The notes: generated from the sequence alone by a model not told the origin. Shown: positions 12,601-50,888, counted from the first letter of the stretch. The stretch is DNA of 64,000 bases from a virus (IMGVR_UViG_2921473944_000001:1-64000); one strand, 5' to 3'. Translations and numbers: made by a program.

Positions 12601-15600
12601 CAAGACCGGATATAAGACCGAGTTCACCAAGAGCTTCTCCCATTCCAGCCAATCCTTTAGCGATGTCATCCCATGACATAAATGCAAATTTCATAAAAGC
12701 ATTAACCATAGCATCTAATCCTGATATAACTATAAGGATCGCACCAGCACCAAATATACTTGAGAAACCGGCTAATTTTCCGACGGCTGTCACTACGGTT
12801 GCTATTTCACCTAAGGCTACACCCATACCAGTAAGGCCTTTTTTAATAACGTCCCAACTCATGAAACCAAATTTCTTAAGAGTTTCTGCTATTGTATCAA
12901 GTCCTTGGGTTACTATTAATATTGCACCAGCACCAAATATACTTGAGAAGCCTGCAAGTTTACTGATAGCTGTAAGAGATACGGTTAATTCAGTCAATGC
13001 ACCGCCCATACCTACAAGCCCTCTGGCTATACCATCCCAGTTCATATCACCGAATTTGACTAATCCGGAAGCAAGTTTATCCAATGATTGAACTGCTATA
13101 AGCATACTTACGCTACTTAATATAGAAGCCCCGCCGTTAGATTTTCCAAGTTGGTTTATAATACTTGTAAATATCTTAAGAGCAGCTCCCATACCTACAA
13201 GACCTCTGGCAATTTCAGACCATGATAATGTTGCAAACGTAGTCATCGCATTACCGAGCATTTCACAACTCTTGGCTAGTGCTAATAAGGCAATACTGGT
13301 AGATGCCGATATTTTGACATCAGAAATACTTTTGACTCCTACACATAGTGTGAGTAAACCAGCACCAGTACCTACTAATCCTTTGGCTATATCATCCCAT
13401 GACAATCCTGACATTTTCACCATAGCATTAGCAAGTATATTGAGCGCCGCGGACATAACGACCATAGAGCCAGCCGCTTTGATAACACCATTTGTGTCGT
13501 ACTTGCTTAAAGTCTTATTCATAGATCTGAAAGATATATTAAGCATTGTAAATAACAATGCAATTGAAGCGAGAGATTTACCAATATCTTCAACACTTAG
13601 ATTAGATATCTTATCCATAGCTCCAGCTAACAAACTTATTGCAAGTGCTATTTCCAACAACGCTGTGGCTTTAATACCAGTGGTGAATGCTTCCAATGAG
13701 TCGTGTAGAGAATCAAGAGCATTATTAATTTTCTCAACTATTTGTCCTATTTTACTGTCTTCACCTTTTCCAAATAATTCTTCTATTTTGTCTTTAATTG
13801 TTTGAACAAGGCCTATAATTTTCTTTATCGTAACGAAGATACCTCCGCCAATCAGTCCAGCAAATAAGTCGCCTAGAGTGAAGTTTTCTTTTACCCAGTC
13901 AACAAATTGTTTAACATATCCACTTATGGTAGATATAACGCTTGTTATAACATCTTTTATCTTCGTAAATACGATTGATATGTTTTTAATCTTATCCGAA
14001 ATATAATCGAAGACATTAGATATACCATCTTTCATAGACGCTAACTCATTTAGAAATCCGTCTATGTGGAATTTATTGTTTACGGCCCCAAATACTGAGT
14101 CCAATAAATCTAACAAACCGTTAAGTGCAGCTGAAATAATACCAACTACTGTGCCTAAACCGTTTGCTATATCATCTATTTTGAAACTATCGTTCAATCG
14201 TGATAATGCATCACCTATAGCTTCTCCTATGGATAATACATGTTCTGCTAAATTGCTTACTCCACTCGATGTAAGTAATTGAAAGAATGCTTTACCGATA
14301 CCGCCGATTACTTTAATACCGATAGATGCTATTGAAAAGAGTCCTTCAAACGTCTTCTCGAGTTTTGCTGCAATCGGATCAGACAATGTCATCTTAGCCG
14401 TTAAATCTCTAATCCCCTCTGTTATAGCAAGTAACTGTTTTGCTGTAGCCGGAGGAAATACGTAGTTAAAAGCTTCCTTAATTGGAGTAATTATTGATAA
14501 CAGAGCATTAAATGCATTCCTGAAAGAATCTATCAATGCAGTTCTACCGCCGAGATTAGCCCATTCTTTAACAATAGCATTTCGTGCATCAGATGACTTA
14601 TTGATAGCATCGCTTAGAACATCACTTACAGAAGTCCACAATTCTTTAGCTTCTTCAAAGTCTCCAATTACATTTCTCCAGGTTTCGGTCCATCCCGATC
14701 CTAATGCTTCTTTAAGAGTATCAATCAACTGTGAGAAAGTTTTTACTTTTGTAGCGGCAGCTCCTGCAGTCTTGGCCATATCAGCCATCTGTTTAGCTTG
14801 TTCTTCACTGTATCCTTGATCTAAAAACTTTTTAACAGCCGCTTCATATTCTTCTTGTGTGTCAGCTGCAGTTGCAAACTGATCGAGTGTTTGTGTGAGA
14901 ACTTCTGTAGTCAACCACCCTGTCTGCAACGATTCTCTGAATGAACCTTTAGCATCAATGGCTGCTTGTGCTCCAGTCTTTAGATGTTCAGAAGTTCGTA
15001 TTAAGGCATCCTGAAATACCTGACCACCCATACCGGCATTAACAACTGAGTTCCAGTCCATAAGTTTTACAGTACCGGCAGCCAATGCCTGTGATAACTG
15101 ATACATTGCTGTCGATGCCTGTTGAGATGTTGAACCTGATACTGCTGCAAGGTTAGCAATACCTTGGATTGCTGATACTGAAGTATCAAGCTTTACACCG
15201 GCTGCTGTAAACGTACCGATATTACGGGTCATTTCCGTAAAGTTATAGATGGTTTTATCAGCATAATGATTCAGCTCATCAAGAGCAGCGTTAACCATTT
15301 TGACGTTTGTTCCCTCTTTTTGAGTATTCGCTAAGATGGTCTGTACAGCATTCATCTGAGTCTCATATTCGGCGAAACCGTCTTTTATTGGTTGTGTGGT
15401 TATAGCTGATACAATCCTCTTACCAGTATTTAGAGCTGAGTTAGTAATGTTAGCTAATGCTGTGATTGCAATAACTTCCATGGCTGAAAACTTAGCTCGA
15501 ACTGTTTCGACTCCGTTTGCAAGCGGAGACATATCAACTTTTCTAGCCGCTGTACCTAATTCTTCAAGACTCTTAGAAGAATCTTTAAAATTTAAACTCT

Positions 15601-18902: not shown

Positions 18903-18921
18903 ATATGTTATCCTCCTATTA

Positions 18922-19242
18922 TTAGAAATATAAAGTGAATGTATCGTGATAGAGATTGTCTGCCTTGTATGTTCTATCTTGTGAACATAGTGGTAGGCGC
19001 AGTAATTTATCCACTACTGGGTGATCCGGTCTGTTATGTATAACAGTGATGTCATAACGATTGGTTAATTGATAAACTTCATTAGAAGCATGCTTAACAT
19101 TCGGTATATTCTTGCTATACACAATCGCCGGGTACTCCATCAATCTGTCTTCCGGTCGGTTGTAATATACCTCTTTAGAACCAAGTAGTTCTTCTAATTT
19201 ACTCTGAAGTTCCAGCCGTGTTCCCATGGTATACACCTCCAA
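18922..19242 (-). CDS. Tail terminator / neck protein
   Basis: 'VYYNRPE...MEYPAIVY' motif; position between head closure and major tail genes. Likely start at 19227. Confidence 0.55.
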   Translation of the reverse strand: MEVYTMGTRLELQSKLEELLGSKEVYYNRPEDRLMEYPAIVYSKNIPNVKHASNEVYQLTNRYDITVIHNRPDHPVVDKLLRLPLCSQDRTYKADNLYHDTFTLYF

Positions 19243-19540
19243 CCGTAAGTATTAATCTTGGGTACTCTACTTTTACGTCTGTGACTTTCCATAAAGTGCC
19301 CATGAATTCCAGATATAGAACTGATGAATAGTGGTATAAAAGATAAGGGTCAGCGAGAATACTAATCTGATTTGAAAGATTAATATCATCACCAACCCTC
19401 TCTGTAGAAACATATCGTTTCCAATTTGTGGATAGTACGTCTCCTTGGTATAGATGTTCTACGATAGCATCTTCGTAGTAACCAGGTTCAATCTCTACAT
19501 CATGTTCTGCAAATCCAATTTTTCCGCACCATTTTGACAT
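19199..19540 (-). CDS. Head closure / head-tail joining protein
   Basis: 'NQISILADPY...YLEFMGTLWKVTDV..YPRLIL' SPP1 gp16-like pattern; directly after the capsid gene. Confidence 0.6.
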   Translation of the reverse strand: MSKWCGKIGFAEHDVEIEPGYYEDAIVEHLYQGDVLSTNWKRYVSTERVGDDINLSNQISILADPYLLYHYSSVLYLEFMGTLWKVTDVKVEYPRLILTVGGVYHGNTAGTSE

Positions 19541-19569
19541 ACTATTTCCTCCATTTTGATTTTATTAGA

Positions 19570-21489
19570 TTAAGCTGCGATATCTGTTGTAGCCTGCACG
19601 AACTCAATAGCTACTGCTCCGTATGGTTTGCACATAGCTCCTGAACAACGTGTCTCAATCAGGTACTTCTGTTTGTTGAAGTCGATATCGAAGTCATCAA
19701 ACATGGTCACATCTCCGCCCCGATCTGTTCCGACGTTGTAGTCTGTAAGGTTCACATACAGACCGGCAAGGAAATGTGTGTTAGCACCTTTAATTCTTGA
19801 CAGTCCTTCCATAACCGGTACAGGAACGATCTTGTTTACGCGAAGTCTTGTAGCGAGTTTCTCTACTGTGTCATAGATAACTCGTCCGGTCTTGTCTTCG
19901 AGAAGCAGGCAGTCTGTAAGCATATCTTCAGACATGTACATAGTCGGATTTCCTGATCCTTTGTACGCTTTTCTTGACTTGATACATGCTTTGATGAACG
20001 CCTGGGCTTTCTCTTCAGCTGTTGTAGCCTTTGTAATAGCAATCTCAGATTTAACTGTATAAACGTCATCATCTGTCCATACTGGTCTGATATTCTGCTC
20101 GTTGATCTTGTCTTCTGCAGATGTGCTGCGTCCGTCACCGAACAGGTATGCACGTGCAAGCTCCTCGTCAAGCATCATACGCATCTCCTGCTTCAGCCAT
20201 GGGATCATATCGAAATCTGTGATGTCCAGCATGTCATCTCTGTCAAGGGACTGTTTCTTGTAAACTGTTACTGGTGTAGTAACACGTTTCAGCATTTTGA
20301 ATACTTCATCTTTCTTCTGTTTGCCTTTAATGTATCCCTTTGCTCTTGCTTCATCTTCTGTGATGTCAGCGAAGATAGATTTAACACGGCTGAATGGTGT
20401 TTTGTGTACTGCTGCCATAACTCCAGCTACCCAGCCATTGTCTCTCTGGATAAATCCTGGTGTTTTATCAATTGTCTGTGCATCCGGGAACAGAGTATCA
20501 ATGTCTGTAATTCCGTGCTCAAGGAAGGCGTCTTTAAGGCTTCCGCGTCTTCTAGCCTCTCCAATAATTTCCTGGAATTCAGAGTGTGTGAGGATTTCCT
20601 GATCCTGTGTGTTTGTCTCCTTATCAAATACGTTATGTTTCATAAAATCTGTCTCTCCTTCTTCTGAGTGTTCTACGTCGTCAGTATCTACGCCGGCATC
20701 TTCCAGAGCCTGACCAATCATTGTGTATACCACTGTTTTCTGTTTGTCTGTTAATGTGTTAAATACATCAGCTACTGTTTCGTCTGAATCAGTGCTATCA
20801 TCTGACGCTGCATGTTTTACTTCTTTCTTGTCTTCGTCGTCAGTGTCGACACCGGCTTCTTCCAAAGCCTGTCCGATCATTGCATAAACTACGGTCTTCT
20901 GCTCTTCTGTTAATGTGTTAAATACATCAGCTACTGTTTTGTCGTCATCGTTTTTAGCAGCTGGCTTCTGTTCTTTATTATCAGTTCCCACTTCTGTTTC
21001 TCCTTTCTTTCCTTCATCTGAATGTGTAAGTTCGTCGTCGAAATCAATGTATTCTCCGCAACGGATAATTGCCTCTTCTTCAGATCCATCGCCATGAGCC
21101 ATTACTGAATCAATAACAGCGCCTGGATTTGCTCCAGCGAGGACTAAACTAACCTCACGAATAACTCCGTGAATAACGTCTCCGCCCATCTGTTTGAGTT
21201 TGTTAGCCCAAATAGACAGACGATCAATATCTTTATGCTGAACAAGGGTTTTAGCATTCTGTCCGGCTTCAGTGTTATTGAATGAAATATAGGCATATAC
21301 TCCGTTGTCACGGTTCTCTAATACAGCATGTCCAAGTACTGCATTCGGATCGTTATGTTCATGATTCCAAACAACTGGAACAGTTTTTCCGTCACATTCT
21401 TCGAAGGCATTCTTACGAATAGTTCGTCCATCTGAGCAAAGCATGTTTGCTTTTGTCGCCCATCCAGAGCAGTCATAAGATTTAGCCAT
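19570..21489 (-). CDS. Prohead protease-scaffold-major capsid fusion protein (HK97 fold)
   Basis: N-terminal HK97-type protease motifs (WNH, LSI, REVSLV...ANP), an acidic linker with a duplicated segment, then a capsid domain. Likely start MAKSYD at 21489 (RBS GGAGG). Confidence 0.9.
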   Translation of the reverse strand: MAKSYDCSGWATKANMLCSDGRTIRKNAFEECDGKTVPVVWNHEHNDPNAVLGHAVLENRDNGVYAYISFNNTEAGQNAKTLVQHKDIDRLSIWANKLKQMGGDVIHGVIREVSLVLAGANPGAVIDSVMAHGDGSEEEAIIRCGEYIDFDDELTHSDEGKKGETEVGTDNKEQKPAAKNDDDKTVADVFNTLTEEQKTVVYAMIGQALEEAGVDTDDEDKKEVKHAASDDSTDSDETVADVFNTLTDKQKTVVYTMIGQALEDAGVDTDDVEHSEEGETDFMKHNVFDKETNTQDQEILTHSEFQEIIGEARRRGSLKDAFLEHGITDIDTLFPDAQTIDKTPGFIQRDNGWVAGVMAAVHKTPFSRVKSIFADITEDEARAKGYIKGKQKKDEVFKMLKRVTTPVTVYKKQSLDRDDMLDITDFDMIPWLKQEMRMMLDEELARAYLFGDGRSTSAEDKINEQNIRPVWTDDDVYTVKSEIAITKATTAEEKAQAFIKACIKSRKAYKGSGNPTMYMSEDMLTDCLLLEDKTGRVIYDTVEKLATRLRVNKIVPVPVMEGLSRIKGANTHFLAGLYVNLTDYNVGTDRGGDVTMFDDFDIDFNKQKYLIETRCSGAMCKPYGAVAIEFVQATTDIAA

Positions 21490-21605
21490 TTTGATTTTTA
21501 CCTCCAAAGTCTATCTGTATAATTGGTTTAAAAGTTACAATGTATCTCTATCTCAAACTCAGATGACACTTTGTCAAAGTCTCGCAATATGGAATTGTCT
21601 CTTAA

Positions 21606-21654: not shown

Positions 21655-22965
21655 TTAATTATCCATACTTTGTAAGCTGGATATAGGCATGTTTCCTAAT
21701 GCTATGTCGTCTTCAGGCACTTCTCTGTCAGTAGGGTACTCTTCCTGTTCTACCATATTATCAGGTGTTATCATACTTTCATCTTGGATAGCAGATTCTG
21801 GCTGATTCAAGTTACTGTTAATAAGCTTGTCAGCTTTCGGATCGTCAGATGGTTTCATACCGATTAGCTGTCGTATCTCATTACTTGTAAGAATCTCATT
21901 ACGAGTAAACTTATCTGCTATTTCAGCAATGTCGTTAACTGGCACTAGACGGAACGGGTCTTTGAAGAACATAATAGTCTGTAGCTGAGTCCGTGCTGTT
22001 TTGGTCAAGAATTTACGTTTCATCTCGTCCACTATTGCTGATAAGATAGGCTCGATCGTACGGTTATTGTAGTTAAGCATTGTCTTTTCGTCAGCAGTAC
22101 CATTCATTACTTCCTGTGTGATACCAAGCTGGCTGTATAAGAGATTGGTAAGATATTCAATCTGTTTCATGAGGTTGTTCTCGACAGGTCGGTTTAACTG
22201 AACAATCTTCTCTGTACCGTCGATATAAGCAATACCATATGGTCCTTTCAATTGTTCTTCAATACTTTCCATTCTCTTCTTAGCTTCGTTACGTCTAGCC
22301 TCAGAACGAATCTGGTATGGTAACTGAATAACCATGTCAAGTTTTCCAGATCCGGTGGATTCATCAACAGCATCAAGTAACACCAATTTACGCATAAGTC
22401 GTTTCATGGTAGAATTCTGCTCGTTGATTACGGCATACAGCGGACTCTCTACAATACCTACTGTTTTCTTGGGTAGAACAACTTCTTCTTGGTGACCAGT
22501 TTTTTCATTATAAAGTCGAACTTTAACATATTCTGGATACCATTCAAGAATCTTACCGGTTCTCAATGTTAAAATATCGTATGAGCTTGTCTGTGTTGGA
22601 TTAAATGTAGTATCTACTGGAACCATGGCTACTGTACCTTCATCGAGCATACTCATAACTGTATCCTGCATGAACGCTCGTCCAGTCTGGTCAATATTTG
22701 CTTCAAGATTGAGACAGTTATTTATGCCTGAATCTATATCTTTTATAAATCTACCATTTACATCAACTTTACAATGCTTGATATTTACTGACGATACATC
22801 TACCGCAATTCTATTAAATATAGAAGTAATTATTGATCGTTCATTACCTCTCGATAGTTGTACACGATCAGGTCGATACGATGCGGAAGTACCTCTATTT
22901 AAATAAGTAGGTTCTCTGTTCCTGAATACGTCCCAGCTATGCCGGAGTGTATCAAATATTCCCAT
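21655..22965 (-). CDS. Portal protein
   Basis: 436 aa between TerL and capsid; HK97-like portal motifs ('AIAYIDGTEKI', 'TIEPILSAIVDEMKRKFL', 'ILTSNEIR'). Confidence 0.9.
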   Translation of the reverse strand: MGIFDTLRHSWDVFRNREPTYLNRGTSASYRPDRVQLSRGNERSIITSIFNRIAVDVSSVNIKHCKVDVNGRFIKDIDSGINNCLNLEANIDQTGRAFMQDTVMSMLDEGTVAMVPVDTTFNPTQTSSYDILTLRTGKILEWYPEYVKVRLYNEKTGHQEEVVLPKKTVGIVESPLYAVINEQNSTMKRLMRKLVLLDAVDESTGSGKLDMVIQLPYQIRSEARRNEAKKRMESIEEQLKGPYGIAYIDGTEKIVQLNRPVENNLMKQIEYLTNLLYSQLGITQEVMNGTADEKTMLNYNNRTIEPILSAIVDEMKRKFLTKTARTQLQTIMFFKDPFRLVPVNDIAEIADKFTRNEILTSNEIRQLIGMKPSDDPKADKLINSNLNQPESAIQDESMITPDNMVEQEEYPTDREVPEDDIALGNMPISSLQSMDN

Positions 22966-22982: not shown

Positions 22983-24716
22983 TTACTCAAAGGCATCTTT
23001 ATTTTGTTTCCAAGCTATAAACGCATCCATGAGTGCTGCGACACAGTCAATCTTGTGTTCTCGTTTACGCTTGAATAGTTTACGGTTGCCATTGCTGTCT
23101 TCGAGAGTGATACAGTTACCCATAGCGAAAGTCATGATGCTTTCATCAAATATAAGCATTCTCTCTTCAGACAGTTTCTTAAGTTCACCTAATGGAATTG
23201 ACTCAGTTTTTGCACCCTGTGGCACTTTTTCGATTCCATATGGACCATGCTCTTGCTCGTATCTTGTTACGAATTCTTTAGCTCCATAAGGATCGTATCC
23301 AAAGCATCGAACATCATAATCGCAGTCTATGATATGCTGATCAAGATCCTCATAAACTTGCATCATGTCAAGGACAGTTCCTTCCAAAATAACGAGACTG
23401 CCCTCTTTCATGAATTCCTCATATTTAGTTCGCATGGCTGCTGGTAGTTTCTTTAGAGTTAAAGAAGATATATAATTACGAGATTTAATTCCGAATGTAC
23501 CATCTGGTAACGGAAATAAGAATGTAAAACTACAGAAGTCATCACCCTGCGATAAATCGGCTCCTAATGCGCAAGGCATTTGCCAGAAGTCCCTTCGTCG
23601 GTGCGGTAAGGTCTCCTCATACGTAAAGTAATATGTATAGCCTTCCAATGGGATTCCGAATCTCTTTGCTAGAATATCGTTTCTAACAGCTGGATTCTGT
23701 TCTGCTCTTTCGACATCCTGTTGGTATGTTTCATAAGTTACTGTCAGACCAAGGTTCGGATTTGCTTTAACCCACATCTCTGGTTTGGCAACTTCGTCGA
23801 TAGAATCTAGCTTGTACCACCATATTGACACATGTGGATTACGATACTCGTTCTTAAGTATCTTTGCTAATTCCATTTTGACTGTATCGCCACTACCATT
23901 TCGGACTGTTCCTTCTGAACTAATAGCTACGATAAGGTAGTCGTCGTTCTTGGAAGCTCCCTGTTCAAGAGCGCCGATTACATCTTCTCGCACATCACCG
24001 GATAGCCATTCATCGACAGTGTTAATACGACTGTTTAGACCCTGAAGTTTATCAATACTCATTGGCCTGATTTCGAGTAACGAACCGGTTAGGAAGTTTT
24101 CAATACCTTTCTTGGTACTCGCAAGTTTCTGACGGTTTGCCCTCGATCCGGTAGTATTCTGCAGTGACCCCTCAGTCAAGAACTTAAAGAGTGGACCTCT
24201 TGATCTTGTGATAGCAGTTCGAATCGGTGATAATACCTCTTCAGACTGTTTCATAGTAGGTGCTGTGGTAATCTGATGTGTGGTTGACGTATCCACATTT
24301 AAGAAGTAACTCTGAATACAAGCAGCATACATCGACTTCGCAGCACCTCTGGCTACGATTAGATACTGCTTATTAATGAGTCGTTTCTTAATTGTCTTCT
24401 GTACATACCGCCCAAGTTCTGGGTCATATACACTTCGTTCTTTGTAGTAGTACCAACCAAAAATCTCTTCTGCCCAAAGTTTAAATGAATCAAGTAGATG
24501 TAAGTCTTCACCATCAGTGAGTGTCATTTCATTCTCACAATAATGAATAAAGCCCTCGACAGCTCTGTTGTCATACCAGAACGCGGGACTTTCTATTAGG
24601 TCATCTATTCGATGCATTTCCATCTCTACTTCTTCGCAGATTGGAATTTCGCCTCTCATTACGGCGTCTCGAAACTTTCCATAATATATAGGAGTCGCTG
24701 TATTACTTAACGCCAT
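22983..24716 (-). CDS. terL: Terminase large subunit
   Basis: Walker A-like 'VARGAAKS', 'TVDEW', nuclease-domain 'GADLS' and 'KIDCVAALMDA'. Confidence 0.95.
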   Translation of the reverse strand: MALSNTATPIYYGKFRDAVMRGEIPICEEVEMEMHRIDDLIESPAFWYDNRAVEGFIHYCENEMTLTDGEDLHLLDSFKLWAEEIFGWYYYKERSVYDPELGRYVQKTIKKRLINKQYLIVARGAAKSMYAACIQSYFLNVDTSTTHQITTAPTMKQSEEVLSPIRTAITRSRGPLFKFLTEGSLQNTTGSRANRQKLASTKKGIENFLTGSLLEIRPMSIDKLQGLNSRINTVDEWLSGDVREDVIGALEQGASKNDDYLIVAISSEGTVRNGSGDTVKMELAKILKNEYRNPHVSIWWYKLDSIDEVAKPEMWVKANPNLGLTVTYETYQQDVERAEQNPAVRNDILAKRFGIPLEGYTYYFTYEETLPHRRRDFWQMPCALGADLSQGDDFCSFTFLFPLPDGTFGIKSRNYISSLTLKKLPAAMRTKYEEFMKEGSLVILEGTVLDMMQVYEDLDQHIIDCDYDVRCFGYDPYGAKEFVTRYEQEHGPYGIEKVPQGAKTESIPLGELKKLSEERMLIFDESIMTFAMGNCITLEDSNGNRKLFKRKREHKIDCVAALMDAFIAWKQNKDAFE

Positions 24717-24734
24717 AATTTATTCACCTACTTT

Positions 24735-25262
24735 TCATCTGAACTGTTTTCTTAATTGTTCGATGTCATCAAGATTGGATTTAGCATAATCATCGAATTT
24801 TTCCATCGAGTATTTTGTGCATAGCAGCTTAGCTTTTTTATAATTTGAATTACTACAAATATCGTGGATTAACGCTCTATTATAATGCTTGGACATAGTT
24901 TTTTCGAATAATTTTTCATATCCATCGACATATGATTTATCGTTCACGTAGTCATGGTTAGTAGCTCTTTTACCTAATTTTTTGTCGTATTCTTTATTGT
25001 ACTGCTAAGCCTTTCCGTTATTCATTTCATTAGCGGCTTCGTTGTATGCCTTACGATATCGTTTTGAATCCCCTTTATTAATATCCTTACTAGCTTTGTT
25101 GAGATATTTTCTATATTCTTTAGATACTTTATTTTTACCAATGTCGGTTAAAGTTCCGTCTGAATTCTGATATTTCCTGACACCCCACTTCATACCTTTA
25201 ACTCCGTAATGTAAGAGTTCTTCTTGGTTACTTCTTGAAAATATGTATATATTGTTTTGCAT
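24735..25262 (-). pseudogene. Tagged (HYGVKGMKWG) basic protein interrupted by an in-frame TAG at 25005-25007
   Basis: ORFs 25005..25262 and 24735..24947 are in the same frame: ...GKA-TAG-QYNKEYDKKLGK... reads open to 24735. Confidence 0.7.
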
Positions 25263-25317
25263 TATTTCTATTCGTCACCTTTCTTTTACTTGCATAACAA
25301 GTATTTATAGCAAATTA

Positions 25318-26073
25318 TTATATATAGCCCATGAATTTTTTTACTTTTTTCGCTGCATTTATAACGTCTCTGATATTCTGTGAACTAAACTGAACTAGAC
25401 TACCGTTTAACGTGGTTTGATGATTGCTCAGATATCGGTTAGCGGCATATGCTCCACTAGTTACGGCCGCTGTTGTAGCTACTGATTTTGCAGTCATCGT
25501 CATACAACGTTTAAGTGCTGCCTTTTTCTTAGAACGTTTCGCTGACACTTCAGGAGCACGCCTTGCGTTGGCTCTTTCAATGTCGTGCTTGCTCATTAAC
25601 CTGTTATACTGTTTCTGAAGTTGCTTGTTTGTCGGGTCTAAGTCCAACTGTTTCTTTACTTTCTTAGCGTCGCTAAGGTATTTACGTGAAAGGTCCGATC
25701 TGACTTCATTCTTAATCTGACCTTTTCGATATGTTGTGTTTCCTTTTAATGATTTCTTATAAGCTTTCATATCTTGCTTGTATTGAGTTTTTAAAGTCTT
25801 ATCTGACTTATTGTTCTCGTAAGCACGTTTAGATAGATTGGCTTTCTTACCAAGTTCCACAGCGTCAGCTTTTTTCTTAGCGTTTTTGCCCCAGTTCTTA
25901 AAACTAGCATCAACCTTTTCGTTTGATCTACGGGCGATTGCTGCTCTAACTCCAGTCGAACTATAAGTAGATTTACGCTTACCCCACTTCATACCTTTAA
26001 CGCCATGGTGATAGAGTTCTTCTGGATTATTAGTTCTTGAAACTACAAATTTAGTGTTATTTTTTTGATACAT
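25318..26073 (-). CDS. Tagged (HHGVKGMKWG; DUF7211-like) Lys-rich protein
   Basis: N-terminal 'EELYHHGVKGMKWG', a very basic body and a C-terminal Ala/Thr hydrophobic helix. Confidence 0.8.
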   Translation of the reverse strand: MYQKNNTKFVVSRTNNPEELYHHGVKGMKWGKRKSTYSSTGVRAAIARRSNEKVDASFKNWGKNAKKKADAVELGKKANLSKRAYENNKSDKTLKTQYKQDMKAYKKSLKGNTTYRKGQIKNEVRSDLSRKYLSDAKKVKKQLDLDPTNKQLQKQYNRLMSKHDIERANARRAPEVSAKRSKKKAALKRCMTMTAKSVATTAAVTSGAYAANRYLSNHQTTLNGSLVQFSSQNIRDVINAAKKVKKFMGYI

Positions 26074-26090
26074 TATTTTCCTACTTTCTA

Positions 26091-26119
26091 TTGGTATTGA
26101 ACATTTTTTGTGCTATAAT
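26091..26119 (+). promoter_or_regulatory. Sigma70-type promoter for the EcsC-like gene
   Basis: TTGGTA-N17-TATAAT with extended -10 TG (TGcTATAAT), ~43 nt before ATG 26162. Confidence 0.6.
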
Positions 26120-26161
26120 ATTTTCAATAATTTTTTGAAAATTAAGTTAGAGGTGTGCATT

Positions 26162-26800
26162 ATGGCTAAGGAAATAATAACTGAAGAACAGATAACATCA
26201 GTATTGAACAAATGCTATGCGATGGCTCTTGGTGGGTTACCAAAAACTCAATCTTGTTACGAACTTGCTGAACATTACATAGAAAAATACAAAGATCCGA
26301 ATAAGGCCGTGTCTGAATTTGTAAAGTGGCAAGTGGCTAAATGTTCCACGTCAGGTTTTCTAACCAGTCTCGGCGGAATCATAACTATGCCTGTAGCTAT
26401 TCCAGCCAACTTAACTAGCGTAATTTATATCCAACTTCGAATGATTGCAACTATCGCTATTATTGGCGGGTACAATCCTTCAGACGATGAGGTTCAGTCA
26501 TTAGCATTCCTTTGTCTGACTGGGGCTTCAATGAGTAAAGTATGTCGTGAAGCCGGCATTAAATTTTCTACGAAGTTGACCACCAGTATGATTAAGAAAA
26601 TTCCTGGCGAAGCACTTAAGAAAATTAATCAAAAAGTTGCACAACGTTTTATTACGAAGTTTGGAACTACAGGAATTATAAACCTTGGAAAAATGGTGCC
26701 GGTCGTTGGCGGCGTTGTTGGAGCCGGGTTTGATTTCGTTGGAACAAACGTCATCGCTAAGAAATCGCGACAGGTATTCTTGGATGGTGTAATAGAATAA
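26162..26800 (+). CDS. EcsC-family protein
   Basis: 'SGFLTSLGGIITMPVAIPANL...IQLRMIATIA..GY' and 'GKMVPVVGGVVGAGFD' motifs; RBS GAGGTG before ATG 26162. The only convincing plus-strand gene. Confidence 0.75.
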   Translation: MAKEIITEEQITSVLNKCYAMALGGLPKTQSCYELAEHYIEKYKDPNKAVSEFVKWQVAKCSTSGFLTSLGGIITMPVAIPANLTSVIYIQLRMIATIAIIGGYNPSDDEVQSLAFLCLTGASMSKVCREAGIKFSTKLTTSMIKKIPGEALKKINQKVAQRFITKFGTTGIINLGKMVPVVGGVVGAGFDFVGTNVIAKKSRQVFLDGVIE

Positions 26801-27868
26801 TTAACTCAAATAATCAGCAGTTTTACGTCTTACATATGCGTTACACTCTGAAACAGTTTTATTACCCATCTTACCCAATACTCCGATCGTACTTGCTATA
26901 CTTTCTTTAGCAATGCGTTCGGAGTTGTATTTTCTATACATTTTATCTACAAATTTAGGATTCGTTTGAGATACGGATTGCAGTTTAACCGAATCTGTAT
27001 CAAACACGATCATTGGGCGTTTTGCATGATAGCTAGAATATTCTTTGTCGTTATAATCGAGTAATGCATTGTACCCTTTCTTTTTCAGCTCCGAATAAAA
27101 TCTATCTTGAGCAGCAATTTCCTGTGAATTATGATTAGTTAACGATAAATTCAAAGCTTTATACACCGCTATTTTCTGGCTTTTTGTCATAACGCTTGGG
27201 TCTTTTTTTAATGCGTTTTCAGCTTGTTTGAATAATATCTGTTGTGCTGGGCGTTTCATTTTTGATTTTGAATCTGCTATAGATGCCACAACGTTAGACT
27301 TGAAATCTTTTTCTTTCAATAAATTAGCTGTAATATGACCAGCGTTCTCATCAGATGGCACTTTAAGTTTTTTGGTTGATGAAATCTTTAACTGATAGAC
27401 TTTCATGTTATCACTAATGGATCTTAGTTCTTTGGCATTTGCTAAATCGGATTCACTACCCGAAACATGTGCTTGTTTCTCAGCTTGCTTAGCTGCAGCG
27501 TTTGCTCTACTGGTTAGGTTCTTACCGAATAAGCCCATATACTTATCTGAATCTTGTTTTTTATATGTAGCATAGAAAGCGAAACTCTCGAATTCTTTGC
27601 TTGTTTGTATTCGTGAGAATGTAGTGCCTTTTTTCAGATAAGTGTCTGCATATTGTTTGCCAGTTATCTGTGTACGTGCCATATTAGTAAGGTCTTTGAC
27701 TTTCATTCTTGATAACGCAGCGGTTCTGGCAAATTGTCCAGTCGATTTGTTTGCATAGTACCGCTGAATTCCAGCCGGGGTTCGAGTCCCGTCAGCGAAC
27801 TGGTATTTTCGTACTCCCCATTTCATACCCTTAACTCCGTGGTGGTATAACTCGCTCACGTTAATCAC
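26801..27868 (-). CDS. Tagged (HHGVKGMKWG) protein with a possible ADP-ribosyltransferase-like domain
   Basis: N-terminal tag. Central 'FSRIQ...FYATY...VYQLKI...GYNALLDYND...PMIVFD' pattern recalls ART-fold strands (low certainty). Confidence 0.55.
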   Translation of the reverse strand: MINVSELYHHGVKGMKWGVRKYQFADGTRTPAGIQRYYANKSTGQFARTAALSRMKVKDLTNMARTQITGKQYADTYLKKGTTFSRIQTSKEFESFAFYATYKKQDSDKYMGLFGKNLTSRANAAAKQAEKQAHVSGSESDLANAKELRSISDNMKVYQLKISSTKKLKVPSDENAGHITANLLKEKDFKSNVVASIADSKSKMKRPAQQILFKQAENALKKDPSVMTKSQKIAVYKALNLSLTNHNSQEIAAQDRFYSELKKKGYNALLDYNDKEYSSYHAKRPMIVFDTDSVKLQSVSQTNPKFVDKMYRKYNSERIAKESIASTIGVLGKMGNKTVSECNAYVRRKTADYLS

Positions 27869-28392
27869 CCCTTTAGTTCTTTAATAGCTAATGCAATACC
27901 CAATGCAGAGCTGGTGACTGCTAGTACGTTTCCGGCTGTTTCCAGAGTTCTACTCGCGTATTCTCTACCTTTTGATTCTTTTTGTGGATTAAACATATCG
28001 TTGTACTGTCGTTCTAAGATTTCTCTATTGATCTGGCTACGCATTTCCTGATCAGTCATGTTTGATAAATCCATCTTTGGAACTTTACGATTTCGATTAG
28101 ATGTATCGACGGTACGTTTTAAATCGTTAGATAGATTCCGGCTAGAATCTACCAGTCTTTTACTGCGCTCAGTATCTTCTTTTGCATATCGATTTGCATC
28201 AAACTCCAAGTCGCTTCGACCATTTTTCTTTGACTGTTTATAGTATTTGCCACTAGACTCGTCATATTTGTTGAATTCTTTCTCTCTAGCGTCTCGAGCG
28301 TAACGTTTCTTTCCAATATCAGTCATGCTTCCGTCTTTATTCTGGAATCTACGTACTCCCCATTTCATACCCTTAACTCCGTGGTGGTATAA
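27810..28392. repeat. 41-bp perfect direct repeat encoding the tag (27810-27850 and 28352-28392)
   Basis: cgtactccccatttcatacccttaactccgtggtggtataa occurs identically at both sites. A second pair, accccacttcatacctttaac (21 bp), lies at 25182-25202 and 25981-26001. Confidence 0.9.
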
Positions 28393-28434
28393 TTCTTCTG
28401 CATCAGAATCTCTTGATACTACATGGTCGTTCAT
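27865..28434 (-). CDS. Tagged (HHGVKGMKWG) protein with C-terminal hydrophobic helix
   Basis: 'EELYHHGVKGMKWGVRRFQNKDGSMT'; C-terminal 'AGNVLAVTSSALGIALAIKELKG'. Confidence 0.8.
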   Translation of the reverse strand: MNDHVVSRDSDAEELYHHGVKGMKWGVRRFQNKDGSMTDIGKKRYARDAREKEFNKYDESSGKYYKQSKKNGRSDLEFDANRYAKEDTERSKRLVDSSRNLSNDLKRTVDTSNRNRKVPKMDLSNMTDQEMRSQINREILERQYNDMFNPQKESKGREYASRTLETAGNVLAVTSSALGIALAIKELKG

Positions 28435-28458: not shown

Positions 28459-28848
28459 TCATTTTGATTGTGATTCTGCTTCAAAGTTCAATCGCCATTC
28501 GAGTTCTTTGACTGCTTCATTGATAGCGTTCATATGTGTTGAACTTGCTGGTGGATCAAACAGAAGACGAACTTTAAGACAGATGTAACTCTTTACAGAT
28601 TCAAAGTTCTCAAATCCATCTGGTAAGTATTCACTCCAAGTTTCACTCCCAGTACTTAAACGAAAGCCGCCAGATGGTCCTACTCCGAGCTGGGTAAGAA
28701 TTGTGAATACTGTGTTGATGTGAATCGTTAGTATCTCATCAAATGCCGTATACTCAGGCATAAGACCAATTCCAACTTTTACATCATCGAGAATTTTGTT
28801 CTCCATAACTGCTCCTCCTTTCTGCCCACTTATCGTTTCCATGGGCAA
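28459..28848 (-). CDS. Head-tail adaptor / connector-like protein
   Basis: 'ILDDVK..IG....FD..L.IHIN.VF..L.QLGVGP...ELEWRL' resembles gp6/gp15-like connectors. Likely start MENKIL. Confidence 0.55.
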   Translation of the reverse strand: MPMETISGQKGGAVMENKILDDVKVGIGLMPEYTAFDEILTIHINTVFTILTQLGVGPSGGFRLSTGSETWSEYLPDGFENFESVKSYICLKVRLLFDPPASSTHMNAINEAVKELEWRLNFEAESQSK

Positions 28849-29255
28849 GTGTCGTTCTTAGTCCTTACTAGAGGTTCAGTCATGAGTAAACTCTCATCAC
28901 CGTAATGTATTGCATTGTGCGTATTGTGAATTGTAGAGATGACATTCTCTGGATCAAGTATCATAGAATTTCTCTGTTCAATGTCTTTCAGAGTAATTGG
29001 ATTAATATGATGAATGATAATCTTTCCTGTAATTTCATAACCGTCACAGCCGAGGTCACAACCGTTATCACGAATAATAATGTCTCGTCTGAATCGTCGC
29101 CATTCACTTGAATGATATAGTGTCTGGTTTAAGTATCGATCATAACCAAATGTGTCTTCGCCGACTTGTCCAGTCAGTTTCAAATATCGATAGCGTTGAA
29201 TGAATGTTGGTAATTGAATAAGTTCTGAGTAAGTTTTAATCTTCGTACTCATAGT
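28830..29255 (-). CDS. HNH endonuclease (packaging-associated)
   Basis: 'RDNGCDLG...IIHHINP...ENVIS..HNTHNAIH'; adjacent to TerS. Likely start MSTKIKT near 29255. Confidence 0.8.
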   Translation of the reverse strand, partial: TMSTKIKTYSELIQLPTFIQRYRYLKLTGQVGEDTFGYDRYLNQTLYHSSEWRRFRRDIIIRDNGCDLGCDGYEITGKIIIHHINPITLKDIEQRNSMILDPENVISTIHNTHNAIHYGDESLLMTEPLVRTKNDTCPWKR

Positions 29256-29595
29256 CTTCAGCATCACCCTGTCCGCCGTAAACACGAAGCATTTTAATTG
29301 CATCTTCATACAGCTGTTTAATTTCTTCGCCAGATTGGTATGCTTTTGCCTTTGCTTCGAGAACTGTGTTTTCTTTCTTCAACTTCTCTTTTTCTAATTC
29401 TGCTTTGGTCGTTCCGAGTTTCAGGAAATGGGTTATTACCTGAGATGATGCAGTACCGTTTAAGAACTGCTCTTCTGCTGCGTCATATGCCATAGCTATC
29501 AACTGCTGCTCTCTAGCCTCCGGAGTTAATGCCGGTGGACTTTTCCTAGTAGGTTTTGTTGACTTTGTTGTAGCTTTCGCCATTGTTACTGTCAC
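29236..29595 (-). CDS. Probable terminase small subunit
   Basis: First gene after the putative cos; 'PPALTPEAREQQLIAMA...GTASSQVITHFLKLG' followed by a coiled coil. Confidence 0.55.
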   Translation of the reverse strand: MTVTMAKATTKSTKPTRKSPPALTPEAREQQLIAMAYDAAEEQFLNGTASSQVITHFLKLGTTKAELEKEKLKKENTVLEAKAKAYQSGEEIKQLYEDAIKMLRVYGGQGDAEDYEYED

Positions 29596-30675: not shown

Positions 30676-33600
30676 TTAGATCACTTCCTTTCCTTTAAGA
30701 TACTTACTGATTGTTGATGTAGAGAAGCCAGTCTTCTTTGCTATCTCTTCAAGTGTATAGTTTGATGCTGCTAATGCTTTGAATCTGGCAGCCTGTGCTT
30801 TACTTGGTGATGTTGTAGTTTTAGGCATAGCTCTCTGTCTTAACTTATCTATATCCGTATTATTAAGAATCTGGTCAAGTTTACTAGCACTAATAGCACC
30901 AGCCTGTATAGCCTCCCACTCTTTGTCTGTAATCTCTATGTTACGCTGTGATCGCTTAGCAGAACCTACTTCATTACGATATTTGGATATGGATTTCTGT
31001 CTGAGCTTACGAAGATCTTCTTTACTCATATTAGGATCGTTCTTCTGCTTCTCTTGAATCTCAGTATTAGCCCTGCGCATAGCCTCTCGCTCCTTAGGCT
31101 GGTTCTTCTTAGCCTCCTTGAGCTTAGTATCCAGTGATGTTACTTCAGTCTGGTACTGTTTACGCATAGCCTGGTTGTATGCTATATCTTTAGTGTTAAC
31201 TATTTCCATTCTGGCTTTGTTACCAAGTGCCTTCATATCATTAGCATACTCAGCATATACCAGTTCCATTTGATGCTTCTTAGGTGATACAAGAGACATT
31301 GCATCGTTTGTTTCAGCCATCTTTGTACTGACCTGATTACGCTGTTTAACATGGTACTGTATTTTACCCGTACTATCTGTAAAGGTTACTTCCCCAGTCT
31401 CTTTGTTAATATGCTGTACCGGGTAGTACTTCTTAGCAGCTACCTTATCCTTAGGATCATAAGAAATAATCTTACCGTCTTCCGTACGGATGTCCACCAT
31501 ACCAGTCTTCTTATTCTTTCCTTTGTCGGCATAGTACAATTTTTTAGGGTCCATAGTCTTCCATACTTTAGCACCGTCTGGTAGGTCTGGATTATAATCT
31601 TTTGTACCCGGAGCATTAATCTTATAACCGCCCTGTCGTTTAGCTACTGAATACTGTCCTTTAGCACTAGACAACAATGTTGAAGCTCCACCAATCTTGA
31701 TACTTCCGTCTGGCTGTATGCTCTGCTGGAATTCAGCTTTAAGAGCAGAGATGTTATTCTCTTTCTCACTAGCTTTATAATCAAGATGATGTTTCTGTGC
31801 ATCGATAACAACCATACTATGCCGTACGGCTCTAGCTATCTTTTCTTCACTGGCTCCGCCGAGTGTCATATCCGTAATAAGGTTAGAAATAACGCCCATC
31901 TGTTTCTGAGTATCTTTCATTATTGGATACTCATGACCATTGCGTGTATAATGTTCTACACCGTTAGAATCGACGGTTTTAGTTCCGCCATATTCAACTT
32001 TCGGATCAAATCCCTCAAGCCCTTTCAATGGACGTTTGTTTTTGATTTTTATTTTACCGCCTGCATCATTCGTAGGGATACACATTACTGTATCTCCGTC
32101 AAAATCTGCTCCAGATAACTGGTCTGCGATTTTATGATTGATACCTACAGCATCGATGCTTTCTCCTGAAATAATCTTCTGTCCAAGCTTATTCTTGTTG
32201 TTTACAGTAAGAATAGGAATCTCAAAGATACCTCCATGCGGGTAACGAATTAATGCTAGTTGTGTTCCTGTAGCATAGTTAGGTGCATAGATTTCGTTGT
32301 CTTTCAAACTATTAATAGGAATAATAACATGGTATCTCTGTCCCGGGAGAGCAGCTGCTTTCAAATGTACTGCTGCAGAATCACATCCGTCAGCAAACTT
32401 TTCAAGTAAGTGTTTCTTGATAGTAGGATTCTGAAGACTACAGATTTCATCGAACTCAGCGAGCTTGTCAGCTTTAGCAAGTCCTAACTGTTTCTTTGCC
32501 AGTGGCACTGCTTGTTTTGAAAGGAACTGTGATGGTAAAGCATTTGCCCATTCAGTCCAGTCACCCTCATCAGCTCTTTTATTAATGAGTCCGAGTTTCG
32601 GTTTACCAGTCTTCTTATCGGTATACCAATACTGTCCGCCCTGGTCCGCATCTTTAATTAATGAACCAAACGGATTATCCGGATCATCTTTGATCTTTTT
32701 AAGTACATCGTTTTGTGGAGTTCCGCGTTTCTTATTAGTATTGAACACAACGTCTACTCCGTCAGGCATATTATCAGAATATACAGCCATACCTTTAAGG
32801 TAGTGAGTACCATCGACCATGATACGAACCTGTGAATATTTAGAATCGCCTAATGATAAGTCCTGAACTCCTCTACGAAGTTCAATGATACCATCTTTCT
32901 CAATACCTTTAGTTCCATCACTGTCCGTATCCTCTGCATATCTGATCAGAAGTCTCTTAGAATCAAGACTTTCCGGATATGTAAATTTTCTGTGATATGT
33001 ATCGCCACCATCATTAGACTGGTAATCTGTAATAGTCTTTACTTTACTGTAATCGTAGATATCTGAGTTCTTTGTTCCAGGAAGACACAATACTTTTTGG
33101 TTTGTCTGTTGATTTGCATTTGTTGGCTGAGGAATACCACCACCATAAATAGGACAATCTTCAGCTTTCTGTAAATAATCAAGGGCTGTATCAAGTCGTG
33201 TTCTTGTAATACCGAGATCCTGTTCTACACCAGCACCAACGTCAATCATGCCTTTCTCTTTAAGCTGATCTCTAAGAAAGTTAACTGTCTCCATAGTCTG
33301 ATTCATGTTATCTTCTCTCGATGGTTCTAATAGCGATCTTACTGTCGATTCAGAAATACCCATTTTTCTACCAATTTCAGTAGCACCAAGACCATCAGCT
33401 TTTAAACTTTTAGCTGTCTGAACCTGATCCAGACGTACTTCATATTTTGCCCAGCTTACCTGTCTGCGGTATTCAGTTGATGTTAGCCCCATAGATTTAT
33501 AGATAGCTTTCTCGCCCGTGAACTTCTCTCCTGTTTCTGGATCAGTCCATGTAAATCCATCTTTCTTCATTTCTTTTACACGACCGAGGAAGTCACTGCC

Positions 33601-33816
33601 GTGTTGGTAAGGTGATTCCCCTGATCCATATGGGTATCGTCCGCTTCTTCTTGGCATACCATAATGCATAGCATCATTTTCGCTTTCAGCAATACCAAAA
33701 CATTCAGCAATCTCTTCCGCTACTTTATTGGTGTCCGAATGTCTTATTGGTTCAGAATTATCAATAGTATCGGCTAATCCATAGTACGACATTATTTCTT
33801 CTGCTATTGGGTTCAT
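30676..33816 (-). CDS. Single-subunit two-barrel (YonO-like) RNA polymerase with terminal HTH domains
   Basis: Catalytic 'LSGADFDGD' (D571-D575; nt 32092-32106), upstream 'LIRYPH' (R524), 'YLKGM', 'QMGVISNLITDM'. HTH motifs near both ends. Confidence 0.8.
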   Translation of the reverse strand: MNPIAEEIMSYYGLADTIDNSEPIRHSDTNKVAEEIAECFGIAESENDAMHYGMPRRSGRYPYGSGESPYQHGSDFLGRVKEMKKDGFTWTDPETGEKFTGEKAIYKSMGLTSTEYRRQVSWAKYEVRLDQVQTAKSLKADGLGATEIGRKMGISESTVRSLLEPSREDNMNQTMETVNFLRDQLKEKGMIDVGAGVEQDLGITRTRLDTALDYLQKAEDCPIYGGGIPQPTNANQQTNQKVLCLPGTKNSDIYDYSKVKTITDYQSNDGGDTYHRKFTYPESLDSKRLLIRYAEDTDSDGTKGIEKDGIIELRRGVQDLSLGDSKYSQVRIMVDGTHYLKGMAVYSDNMPDGVDVVFNTNKKRGTPQNDVLKKIKDDPDNPFGSLIKDADQGGQYWYTDKKTGKPKLGLINKRADEGDWTEWANALPSQFLSKQAVPLAKKQLGLAKADKLAEFDEICSLQNPTIKKHLLEKFADGCDSAAVHLKAAALPGQRYHVIIPINSLKDNEIYAPNYATGTQLALIRYPHGGIFEIPILTVNNKNKLGQKIISGESIDAVGINHKIADQLSGADFDGDTVMCIPTNDAGGKIKIKNKRPLKGLEGFDPKVEYGGTKTVDSNGVEHYTRNGHEYPIMKDTQKQMGVISNLITDMTLGGASEEKIARAVRHSMVVIDAQKHHLDYKASEKENNISALKAEFQQSIQPDGSIKIGGASTLLSSAKGQYSVAKRQGGYKINAPGTKDYNPDLPDGAKVWKTMDPKKLYYADKGKNKKTGMVDIRTEDGKIISYDPKDKVAAKKYYPVQHINKETGEVTFTDSTGKIQYHVKQRNQVSTKMAETNDAMSLVSPKKHQMELVYAEYANDMKALGNKARMEIVNTKDIAYNQAMRKQYQTEVTSLDTKLKEAKKNQPKEREAMRRANTEIQEKQKNDPNMSKEDLRKLRQKSISKYRNEVGSAKRSQRNIEITDKEWEAIQAGAISASKLDQILNNTDIDKLRQRAMPKTTTSPSKAQAARFKALAASNYTLEEIAKKTGFSTSTISKYLKGKEVI

Positions 33817-34752: not shown

Positions 34753-34773
34753 ACAACCACCCTTTCTTATTGA

Positions 34774-34845
34774 TGGACCTTATAGGAATCGAACCTATTA
34801 CGTTTCGCTTATGAGGCGACTGTTCTACCAATGAACTAAAGGTCC
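34774..34845 (-). tRNA. tRNA with CAT anticodon, probably tRNA-Ile2 (lysidine-modified); no encoded CCA
   Basis: GGACCTT/AAGGTCC acceptor stem, GTTC/GAAC D-stem, CTCATAA loop, ATAGG-TTCGATT-CCTAT T-arm. G1-C72 excludes the initiator tRNA, and the acceptor stem matches Bacillota tRNA-Ile2. Confidence 0.85.
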
Positions 34846-34994
34846 ATAAATATAGACAAAAAGAAGGCGCAATGTTTGTCCGATTTGTTGTTGATTGACT
34901 GCTTGTTTTTTGCAAATCGGGAGACATTGTACCTTCTCTTCATAACAGGATAAGTTTTAGTGACGGGCATCGAGTGTTGTAAAAATAGTAGTTT

Positions 34995-50720: not shown

Positions 50721-50888
50721 CTACCTCAACACTTTTGAAATATCACCATCTCGTATTGTTATAGTATCCCAATCAGGTCCTGGTAGTTCAACATCAATTA
50801 AATATGCTACCCCAGGTTCTAATATTTCAACTACAACACCGTGACGTCCGTCTTTTAGAATTACTTTATCATATAATTTTACAATCAT
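50721..50888 (-). CDS. Putative cognate immunity protein (DUF4926-like), 55 aa, absent from the ORF track
   Basis: MIVKLYDKVILKDGRHGVVVEILEPGVAYLIDVELPGPDWDTITIRDGDISKVLR; ATGA overlap with the toxin stop; RBS GAGGTG. Confidence 0.7.
   Translation of the reverse strand: MIVKLYDKVILKDGRHGVVVEILEPGVAYLIDVELPGPDWDTITIRDGDISKVLR

Follow-up and report, generated by a model that had tools for sequence, protein, structure and literature searches.

A conserved N-terminal peptide, DUF7211, as a candidate head-loading tag for ejected cargo in a lineage of siphophages

Introduction

In phage T4, the internal proteins IPI to IPIII and Alt carry a capsid-targeting sequence that is removed by the prohead protease gp21. 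Encapsulins load diverse cargo through short, conserved peptides that bind the inner face of their HK97-fold shell, and N4, with its virion RNA polymerase (vRNAP), and crAss-like phages send in a polymerase along with their genome so that transcription can begin. In 2017, Iyer, Burroughs, Anand, de Souza, and Aravind reportedly described the polyvalent proteins found in phages and conjugative elements, among them the ART-PolyVal domain (PF18760). A siphophage precedent for a genome-delivered polymerase is P23-45, in which the RNA polymerase is fused to the tape measure protein (PMC10770324), and the Dar antirestriction proteins of phage P1 are incorporated during head morphogenesis and ejected (PMC12810830). 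Here we analyze a locus in the viral sequence IMGVR_UViG_2921473944_000001. The window, that is, the whole stretch that was analyzed, comprises 64,000 nucleotides of an IMG/VR provirus record of 79,953 bp. On the minus strand, which is the coding strand, an array of genes at positions 24735 to 28434 encodes proteins that begin with a shared peptide tag, the Pfam domain DUF7211 (PF23847).

Pfam assigns no function to DUF7211, and our literature search found no paper naming DUF7211, PF23847, or the letters of the motif. A preliminary description of the window had proposed that the tag is a capsid-loading and protease-cleavage signal that delivers interchangeable effectors with the DNA. The analysis reported here leads us to favor, with guarded confidence, the view that DUF7211 is a head-loading tag for ejected cargo in one large siphophage lineage.

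Results

Six-frame translation of the window yields five exact occurrences of the octapeptide G-V-K-G-M-K-W-G, every one on the minus strand. DUF7211 is carried by five proteins: four have it at the N terminus and are encoded in a tandem array between the genes for the connector and the large terminase (TerL), and one has it internally. The shared N-terminal tag that had been claimed for four genes between the adaptor, or connector, and TerL is therefore confirmed, with scores of 36.5 to 46.6 bits against a Pfam gathering cutoff of 27 bits. The fifth copy stands at the cutoff (25.9 bits by hmmscan and 29.4 bits by six-frame search), and a six-frame search of the whole 79,953-bp record found no sixth. 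The tag has about 35 conserved positions, 25 of which are spanned by the DUF7211 model, and its core reads L-x-H-[HYFW]-G-[VI]-x-G-M-K-W-G-V-R-R. It starts at residues 6 to 20 in four of the five window copies and within the first 45 residues in 496 of 843 tags, behind a leader that is short (6 to 20 residues) and acidic.

Beyond the tag, the bodies of the array proteins share at most an extension of about 25 residues that directly follows it (R-Y-Q-N-x-D-G-x-L-T). With that extension set aside, pairwise BLAST of the bodies gave E values of at least 0.15, and all four bodies are basic, with net charges of +9 to +37. The earlier statement that the tag is followed by unrelated basic bodies thus needs amending only for this common extension. 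The first tagged gene after the connector (27865-28434; phrog_32444, E = 1.5e-24) encodes a 189-residue protein with DUF7211 at residues 12 to 29 (nucleotides 28348-28401; 42.0 bits), a body that is basic, and, at the C terminus, a hydrophobic helix (residues 166 to 184). Its homologs include a protein of FP_oengus and the C terminus of gp13 of Gordonia phage Fazel. Ahead of the C-terminal hydrophobic segment, at residues ~120 to 150, this family has a second motif, a helix with S-x-x-E-L ... R-x-x-L-E-x-x-Y, which is also present in ORF7 of Lactococcus phage 1706 and in P0006, and which ends a four-tag polyprotein. The second gene (26801-27868) encodes 355 residues with DUF7211 at residues 6 to 23 (27800-27853; 36.5 bits), and the third (25318-26073) encodes 251 residues with DUF7211 at residues 18 to 35 (25969-26022; 41.8 bits); the third body, with a net charge of +37, matches no known family and has eight family members among relatives.

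An in-frame TAG at 25005-25007 splits the 175 codons of the fourth tagged gene (24735-25262, minus strand). In its present form, the gene yields an 85-residue product (25005-25262; 46.6 bits; tag at 25167-25226) and a 70-residue remainder open reading frame (ORF) at 24735-24947. Three relatives (P0002, P0004, and P0007; 172 to 175 residues) are intact, have E in place of the TAG, and are 88 to 96% identical to the window's protein across the first 45 residues. Since the intact relatives read E here and the TAG is an ordinary stop, the 70-residue ORF is the remainder of gene 4 and not a separate gene. Recoding of the TAG was ruled out, as TAG terminates eight other ORFs and a suppressor tRNA is absent. 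The stop could reflect a provirus pseudogene or a sequencing error.

The window's phage fits the supercluster of 1706, FP_oengus, and actinophages, for which a protease-capsid fusion and a YonO-like polymerase with helix-turn-helix ends have been described (Koert et al., bioRxiv 10.1101/842583). On the minus strand, the genes run in the order YonO-like RNA polymerase, small protein (phrog_4259), HNH endonuclease, connector, four tagged genes, TerL, portal, and a fusion of protease, scaffold, and capsid protein. The order in phage 1706 is HNH, connector, tagged ORF7, TerL, portal, and fusion, and its ORF75, an RNA polymerase homolog, is 36% identical to the window's polymerase over the full length (E = 5e-170). 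The tag is restricted to this one phage lineage. A tblastn search with the tag returned 235 cultured-phage records (Arthrobacter, 91; Gordonia, 55; Streptomyces, 53; Lactococcus, 10; and others), and a profile of 28 tags matched 54,272 clusters at 50% identity (E ≤ 0.001) among 1.84 billion representatives. When bacterial genomes were scanned by the tag pattern alone, the hits fell mostly in Clostridia (Lachnospiraceae, Oscillospiraceae, Faecalibacterium, Eubacterium ramulus, and Roseburia). The 42 pattern-found loci of at least 15 kb contain the TerL family in every case, the capsid fusion and the portal in 40, and the RNA polymerase in 34. In Gordonia phage Fazel, one tag is located within a 2H-phosphoesterase fusion that precedes TerL, and the interval from TerL to portal contains three tagged genes; in Rhodococcus phage ReqiPepy6, the tag starts all seven genes between TerL and portal. 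Gordonia phage GMA3 was ruled out as a member of the lineage, as its capsid genes are separate.

The GenBank record of phage 1706 (EU081845) labels ORF7 "structural protein." This 462-residue protein carries two copies of DUF7211 (PF23847, E = 6.9e-11) and occupies the same slot as the window's array; besides its tags, no in-frame tag was found in the 1706 genome. The same label is given to ORF75, which has a variant of the motif at its N terminus. In the window, the variant tag lies at residues 49 to 66 (nucleotides 33619-33672) of the YonO-like RNA polymerase (1,046 residues; 30676-33816, minus strand; phrog_4291, E = 0) and consists of hydrophobic-x-H-Y-G, an inserted basic stretch, and aromatic-G-S-G; it is conserved near residue 8 of the polymerase in 13 distinct relatives. 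A tag hidden Markov model (HMM) searched against the polymerase N termini was not significant (E ≥ 0.019 against a very small database), nor is DUF7211 listed there by Pfam. The polymerase variant is therefore a half-match, with position and conservation as its support, and what stands of the variant tag noted in the preliminary description is that 13 distinct relatives and 1706 conserve the motif at the N terminus. We regard the 1706 labels as a lead from experimental annotation rather than a demonstration. The N terminus of the window's polymerase (residues 1 to 66; nucleotides 33619-33816) appears duplicated, with a degenerate copy of the leader, an I-R-H-S-D site of the type found in the capsid fusion's spacer (described below), and then the variant tag; the polymerases of most relatives begin directly with the leader.

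Position and turnover were examined in 80 IMG/VR loci in which TerL is 75 to 99% identical to that of the window and which contain 175 tags in 174 tagged proteins. All 175 tags are on the strand of TerL, and 147 of the 174 proteins (84%) are encoded in one of the two gaps that flank TerL, toward the connector or toward the portal. Together with the pattern-found loci above (TerL in 42 of 42 and the fusion in 40 of 42), these counts uphold the proposed linkage of the tag to the head module. The tagged bodies form 50 families, 37 of which are singletons. The 189-residue family is nearly universal, with 69 members among 81 relatives, and usually lies directly after the connector; the 355-residue type has 24 members. 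Cargo is swapped between phages with TerL 91 to 99% identical: in a relative with 99% identical TerL, the first two tagged genes are kept, the third is unrelated, and the opposite-strand insert is different. The claim that the tagged effectors are interchangeable agrees with these results, and since the domains downstream of the tag vary among relatives rather than being invariant, the loading hypothesis survives this check.

This turnover bears on the possibility that the tagged proteins are minor parts of the head or neck (plugs of the portal or connector, DNA-end binders, or head-completion factors) and not ejected effectors, with the tag serving as a peptide for attachment to the portal or connector. 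The array directly follows the connector gene and adjoins the portal, the near-universal 189-residue family keeps its position, and 1706 ORF7 is labeled structural, all of which would suit such parts. However, twelve portal sites would hardly fit up to eight tagged proteins and a polymerase, most families are singletons exchanged between near-identical phages, and the bodies include enzyme and toxin domains. We therefore consider this explanation unlikely.

What the putative cargo might do was approached through the 355-residue protein, for which the only Pfam family found was DUF7211. PF18760 was not matched at E ≤ 1, and a profile of the protein's family gave no match below E = 0.05 against the sequences in the PDB. 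An AlphaFold2 model built with 22 relatives reached a predicted local distance difference test (pLDDT) score of 77.9; an alignment-free model (pLDDT, 41) was discarded. The tag is modeled as disordered (pLDDT < 50), as expected of a docking peptide, and the body (residues ~71 to 316) is modeled as an ADP-ribosyltransferase (ART)-like fold with a helical insertion. Among 48,161 chains compared with the model, the ten best aligned 99 to 175 residues within model residues 65 to 329 at a root mean square deviation of 4.0 to 5.1 Å, with Z scores of 5.6 to 6.7, which are below the level of a safe fold match. Nine of these ten belong to the ART superfamily. The best match by VIA-align was a pre-ejectosome chain of cyanophage A4 (Z = 6.7), followed by MbcT (6.4 to 6.5) and diphtheria-toxin-like catalytic domains (6.1 to 6.3), with Arr, Tne2, and ParT also found; these top matches cover residues ~71 to 320. 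The cyanophage chain is a packaged ejection protein (PMC12002296). Among the structural neighbors from viruses are Gordonia, Arthrobacter, and Streptomyces phage proteins (E = 1e-13 to 1e-8) and proteins of the "large polyvalent protein associated" and ART-PolyVal-like kinds. Because the Z scores are middling and an ART sequence match is missing, the modeled fold is likely ART-like and enzyme activity is predicted at most.

Elsewhere the tag is fused to other domains: to 2H phosphoesterases, GNAT acetyltransferases, and Gln_amidase toxin domains in relatives and to DUF6883 in the window. The latter is the fifth copy (325 residues; 50885-51862, minus strand), which consists of DUF5662, DUF7211 (residues 177 to 190; nucleotides 51293-51334), an N-G-P-P-Y-P linker, and DUF6883. 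The copy that had been described as preceding a toxin domain at 51.3 kb is thus present and does precede DUF6883, but it is internal and follows DUF5662. In this copy, the tag's His is followed by S, matching a canonical spacer-type site. The closest relative of the window, L013, encodes after its lysin gene (18921-19877, plus strand) a protein in which an N-terminal tag and the same N-G-P-P-Y-P linker precede a Gln_amidase (papain-fold toxin) domain; the combination of tag and linker is common to the two proteins.

A strongly hydrophobic segment, mostly C-terminal, occurs in 25% of the tagged proteins, as opposed to 10% of other ORFs. Such segments would suit ejection proteins that act on membranes, but also proteins that work at the membrane once the cell is infected. 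Under a second alternative, the tag would act in the infected cell by bringing late effectors to a common target (membrane, ribosome, or terminase), and the head operon would only set the timing of their expression. The excess of hydrophobic segments would accord with this, as would the location of the fifth copy far from the head genes and the loose likeness that we see between this glycine/lysine-rich peptide and the mature N terminus of ribosomal protein L27 (motif in PMC9405229). A tag of that kind would not explain why its occurrence is limited strictly to genomes that have this head module, why 84% of the tagged proteins fall in the two gaps flanking TerL, or why tagged proteins are labeled structural in the 1706 record, and we judge it slightly less probable than attachment to the portal or connector.

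The head module encodes a 645-residue fusion of an S78 prohead protease, a scaffold spacer, and the major capsid protein (19570-21507, minus strand; phrog_3270, E = 2.5e-223; Peptidase_S78), likely the partner and processing enzyme. The spacer (residues ~126 to 331) contains seven His residues (H138, H162, H232, H280, H291, H308, and H331), each with L, I, V, M, or F two positions before it. Across 47 unique homologs, 252 of 261 spacer His residues (97%) stand in this hydrophobic-x-H context, whereas the capsid body, TerL, and the polymerase show it for 15%, 17%, and 24% of their His residues; hydrophobic residues make up 21% of the spacer. The portal's raised value of 52% stems from a pair of conserved columns, of which one is conserved just in part. 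The residue after a spacer His is S, G, A, N, or D and never aromatic. H331, the last site, is invariant and sits at the expected start of a mature HK97-type capsid protein of ~314 residues. Judged from sequence, the spacer pattern fits a cleavage rule of hydrophobic-x-H/small residue. Residues ~190 to 280 of the spacer contain two copies of a helical repeat of ~35 residues, with a hydrophobic-x-H site ~10 residues after the first copy and 3 residues after the second; the repeat is probably the scaffold function in repeated form.

Canonical sites of this type also occur in tagged polyproteins. Among the 150 best profile hits, which are up to 1,569 residues long, 147 have two to five tags by motif count, and in these multi-tag proteins a canonical site lies within 45 residues upstream (mostly 5 to 20) of 55% of the internal tags, compared with 13% of random windows. 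The simplest reading is that the polyproteins would be cut upstream of each tag, freeing units like the single-gene products with the tag intact.

The tag itself could instead be mainly a processing signal, cut between the aromatic residue and glycine by the S78 domain or by Prp, the host protease for L27, so that a new G-V-K-G N terminus activates the protein and capsid targeting is absent or secondary. The tag resembles the cleavage site of the phage 80-alpha capsid protein, L-Q-H-F/A, and the short, acidic leader ahead of it would also suit removal. Its segment [DE]-L-x-H-aromatic-G partly resembles the Prp cleavage motif, [DN]-L-Q-[FL]-F/A-[SH]-K-K (PMC9405229). Three observations weigh against this explanation, which we consider improbable: the tag mismatches the spacer consensus of the phage's own protease, no Prp gene was found in the phage record, and the tag is equally conserved in phages of Actinobacteria, a phylum unlisted among the bearers of Prp (PMC9405229).

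Conservation of the tag is at the level of the peptide. Codons differ under identical residues at between 2 of 17 and 10 of 16 positions between window copies, nucleotide identity among the window tags is only 49 to 76%, and five columns are invariant as protein across phages of Firmicutes and Actinobacteria. Selection has therefore acted on the peptide rather than on the DNA. It is accordingly very improbable that the conserved 5' ends are chiefly recombination handles for the exchange of cargo cassettes, with a peptide of little function, even though cargo is exchanged between phages with 91 to 99% identical TerL in a manner akin to polymorphic toxin loci.

The array is bounded upstream by the connector gene (28459-28848; Phage_connect_2, E = 8.3e-32), whose homolog in 1706, ORF6, is annotated as a structural protein; the HNH endonuclease gene (28830-29309) precedes it. 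The downstream boundary is TerL (22983-24716; phrog_9, E = 3.5e-108), followed by the portal (21655-22965; phrog_12, E = 1.7e-40), all on the minus strand. A 170-bp segment of the portal gene (~22070-22240) is 77.5% identical in DNA to positions 13478-13647 of Gordonia phage Fazel (PP978862), which is unusually high for phages of different phyla. Inserted in the array on the plus strand is an untagged EcsC-family gene (26108-26800; E = 2.2e-14), probably a moron outside the tag system. In L013, the same slot (8241-9335, minus strand) holds an unrelated ORF of 364 residues, on the strand opposite to the array and with no Pfam family; the slot looks like a moron insertion hotspot. A single tRNA-Met gene (34772-34846, minus strand) sits a short way upstream of the genes for the exonuclease and the RNA polymerase.

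Discussion

If DUF7211 is a head-loading tag, the following sequence of events can be envisaged. Proteins expressed together with the head genes would begin with the tag, which would dock this cargo inside the assembling procapsid, built from the protease-scaffold-capsid fusion. The S78 protease domain would then remove the spacer at its hydrophobic-x-H/small-residue sites and would cut multi-unit cargo polyproteins at the same type of site, just upstream of internal tags. Cargo would remain in the head and exit with the DNA. It would comprise the conserved 189-residue protein; a group of rapidly changing proteins of basic, enzyme-like, or toxin-like character, represented here by the ART-like protein and two orphans, one of them broken; and the RNA polymerase, loaded by its variant tag. 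In this scheme, we infer the docking partner, any cutting of the tag, and ejection.

Several observations weigh against the loading proposal. In 96 to 99% of the 843 tags, the His is followed by H, Y, F, or W. An aromatic residue never occupies this position at the spacer sites, where the consensus is a small residue, so the tag is no copy of a spacer site and cleavage within it is doubtful; the protease-cleavage half of the original idea finds no support in this comparison. Where an internal tag has no canonical site upstream, small residues after the His show no enrichment (4%, compared with 1 to 3%). The virion evidence from 1706 is a database label and comes from a phage other than that of the window. 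Moreover, two small, untagged proteins from the replication region of 1706, ORF62 and ORF71, carry the structural label too, which is thus not reserved for tagged proteins; either cargo loads without a tag as well or some of the labeled proteins are contaminants. The fold match of the 355-residue protein is middling (Z scores of 6 to 7) and without sequence support, and the hydrophobic helix in a quarter of the tagged proteins also fits a membrane role in the infected cell.

A more specific form of the loading proposal would accommodate the intact tag. Tentatively, and with less confidence than in head loading as such, DUF7211 could be a portable, near-universal address peptide, retained on the mature cargo as a noncleaved docking motif or pseudo-substrate, through which a polymerase, ART-like enzymes, 2H phosphoesterases, acetyltransferases, and toxins are loaded into HK97-fold heads built from the protease-capsid fusion. 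Phages of gut and soil would then inject a protein payload and start transcription without the host polymerase.

If the tag is a loading signal, a one-line rule would predict the injected proteome of tens of thousands of uncultured phages of gut, rumen, and soil, and a siphophage lineage would be carrying its own RNA polymerase in the particle. A short peptide would become usable to load chosen proteins into phage heads, and a domain of more than 54,000 clusters that so far lacks an assigned function would become a testable hypothesis. Cultured models exist, among them Lactococcus phage 1706, FP_oengus, and many SEA-PHAGES phages of Arthrobacter, Gordonia, and Streptomyces. New in this analysis are the connection to the 1706 annotation of a tagged protein and a polymerase, the ART-like cargo fold, the broken fourth gene, and the distinction between the tag and the protease sites.

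The T4 capsid-targeting sequence is, like the tag, a short N-terminal peptide common to unrelated proteins; the T4 proteins are packed and injected, which we infer here. T4 cargo includes the ADP-ribosyltransferase Alt, and the analogy gains weight from the modeled ART-like fold of the 355-residue protein. The processing sites compare as well, since the T4 protease site, L/I-x-E, and the hydrophobic-x-H sites here both follow a hydrophobic-x-P1 rule. However, the two peptides have no sequence similarity, and the tag is longer, far more conserved, and also found internally, with two to five copies per polyprotein. T4 has a separate core, whereas this siphophage has a protease-scaffold-capsid fusion. 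As the tag mismatches the consensus of the phage's protease, it may, unlike the T4 sequence, stay on the mature protein. Encapsulin cargo-loading peptides are usually C-terminal and have no sequence similarity to the tag, for which binding to the shell is putative.

Other systems share the cargo rather than the peptide. Polyvalent proteins resemble the multi-tag polyproteins in being large and multidomain and in being predicted to travel with the DNA and be cut into effectors; here, in contrast, no sequence match to PF18760 was found, and most units stand as individual genes that each bring a tag. MuF-fused polymorphic toxins combine a part of the head module with swappable C-terminal toxin domains, as do the fifth copy, with its DUF6883, and the Gln_amidase protein of L013. 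The carrier in MuF systems is a folded domain, whereas here it is a 35-residue peptide, and the MuF domain (PF04233) was not found in the whole 79,953-bp record at E ≤ 0.1, although control genomes matched. The Dar system of P1 is, like the arrangement proposed here, a set of antidefense proteins packed into the head, but P1 is not known to have a shared tag. Compared with known virion RNA polymerases, the enzyme encoded in the window would be a free YonO-like polymerase with a variant head tag, for whose packaging the 1706 label is the one indication.

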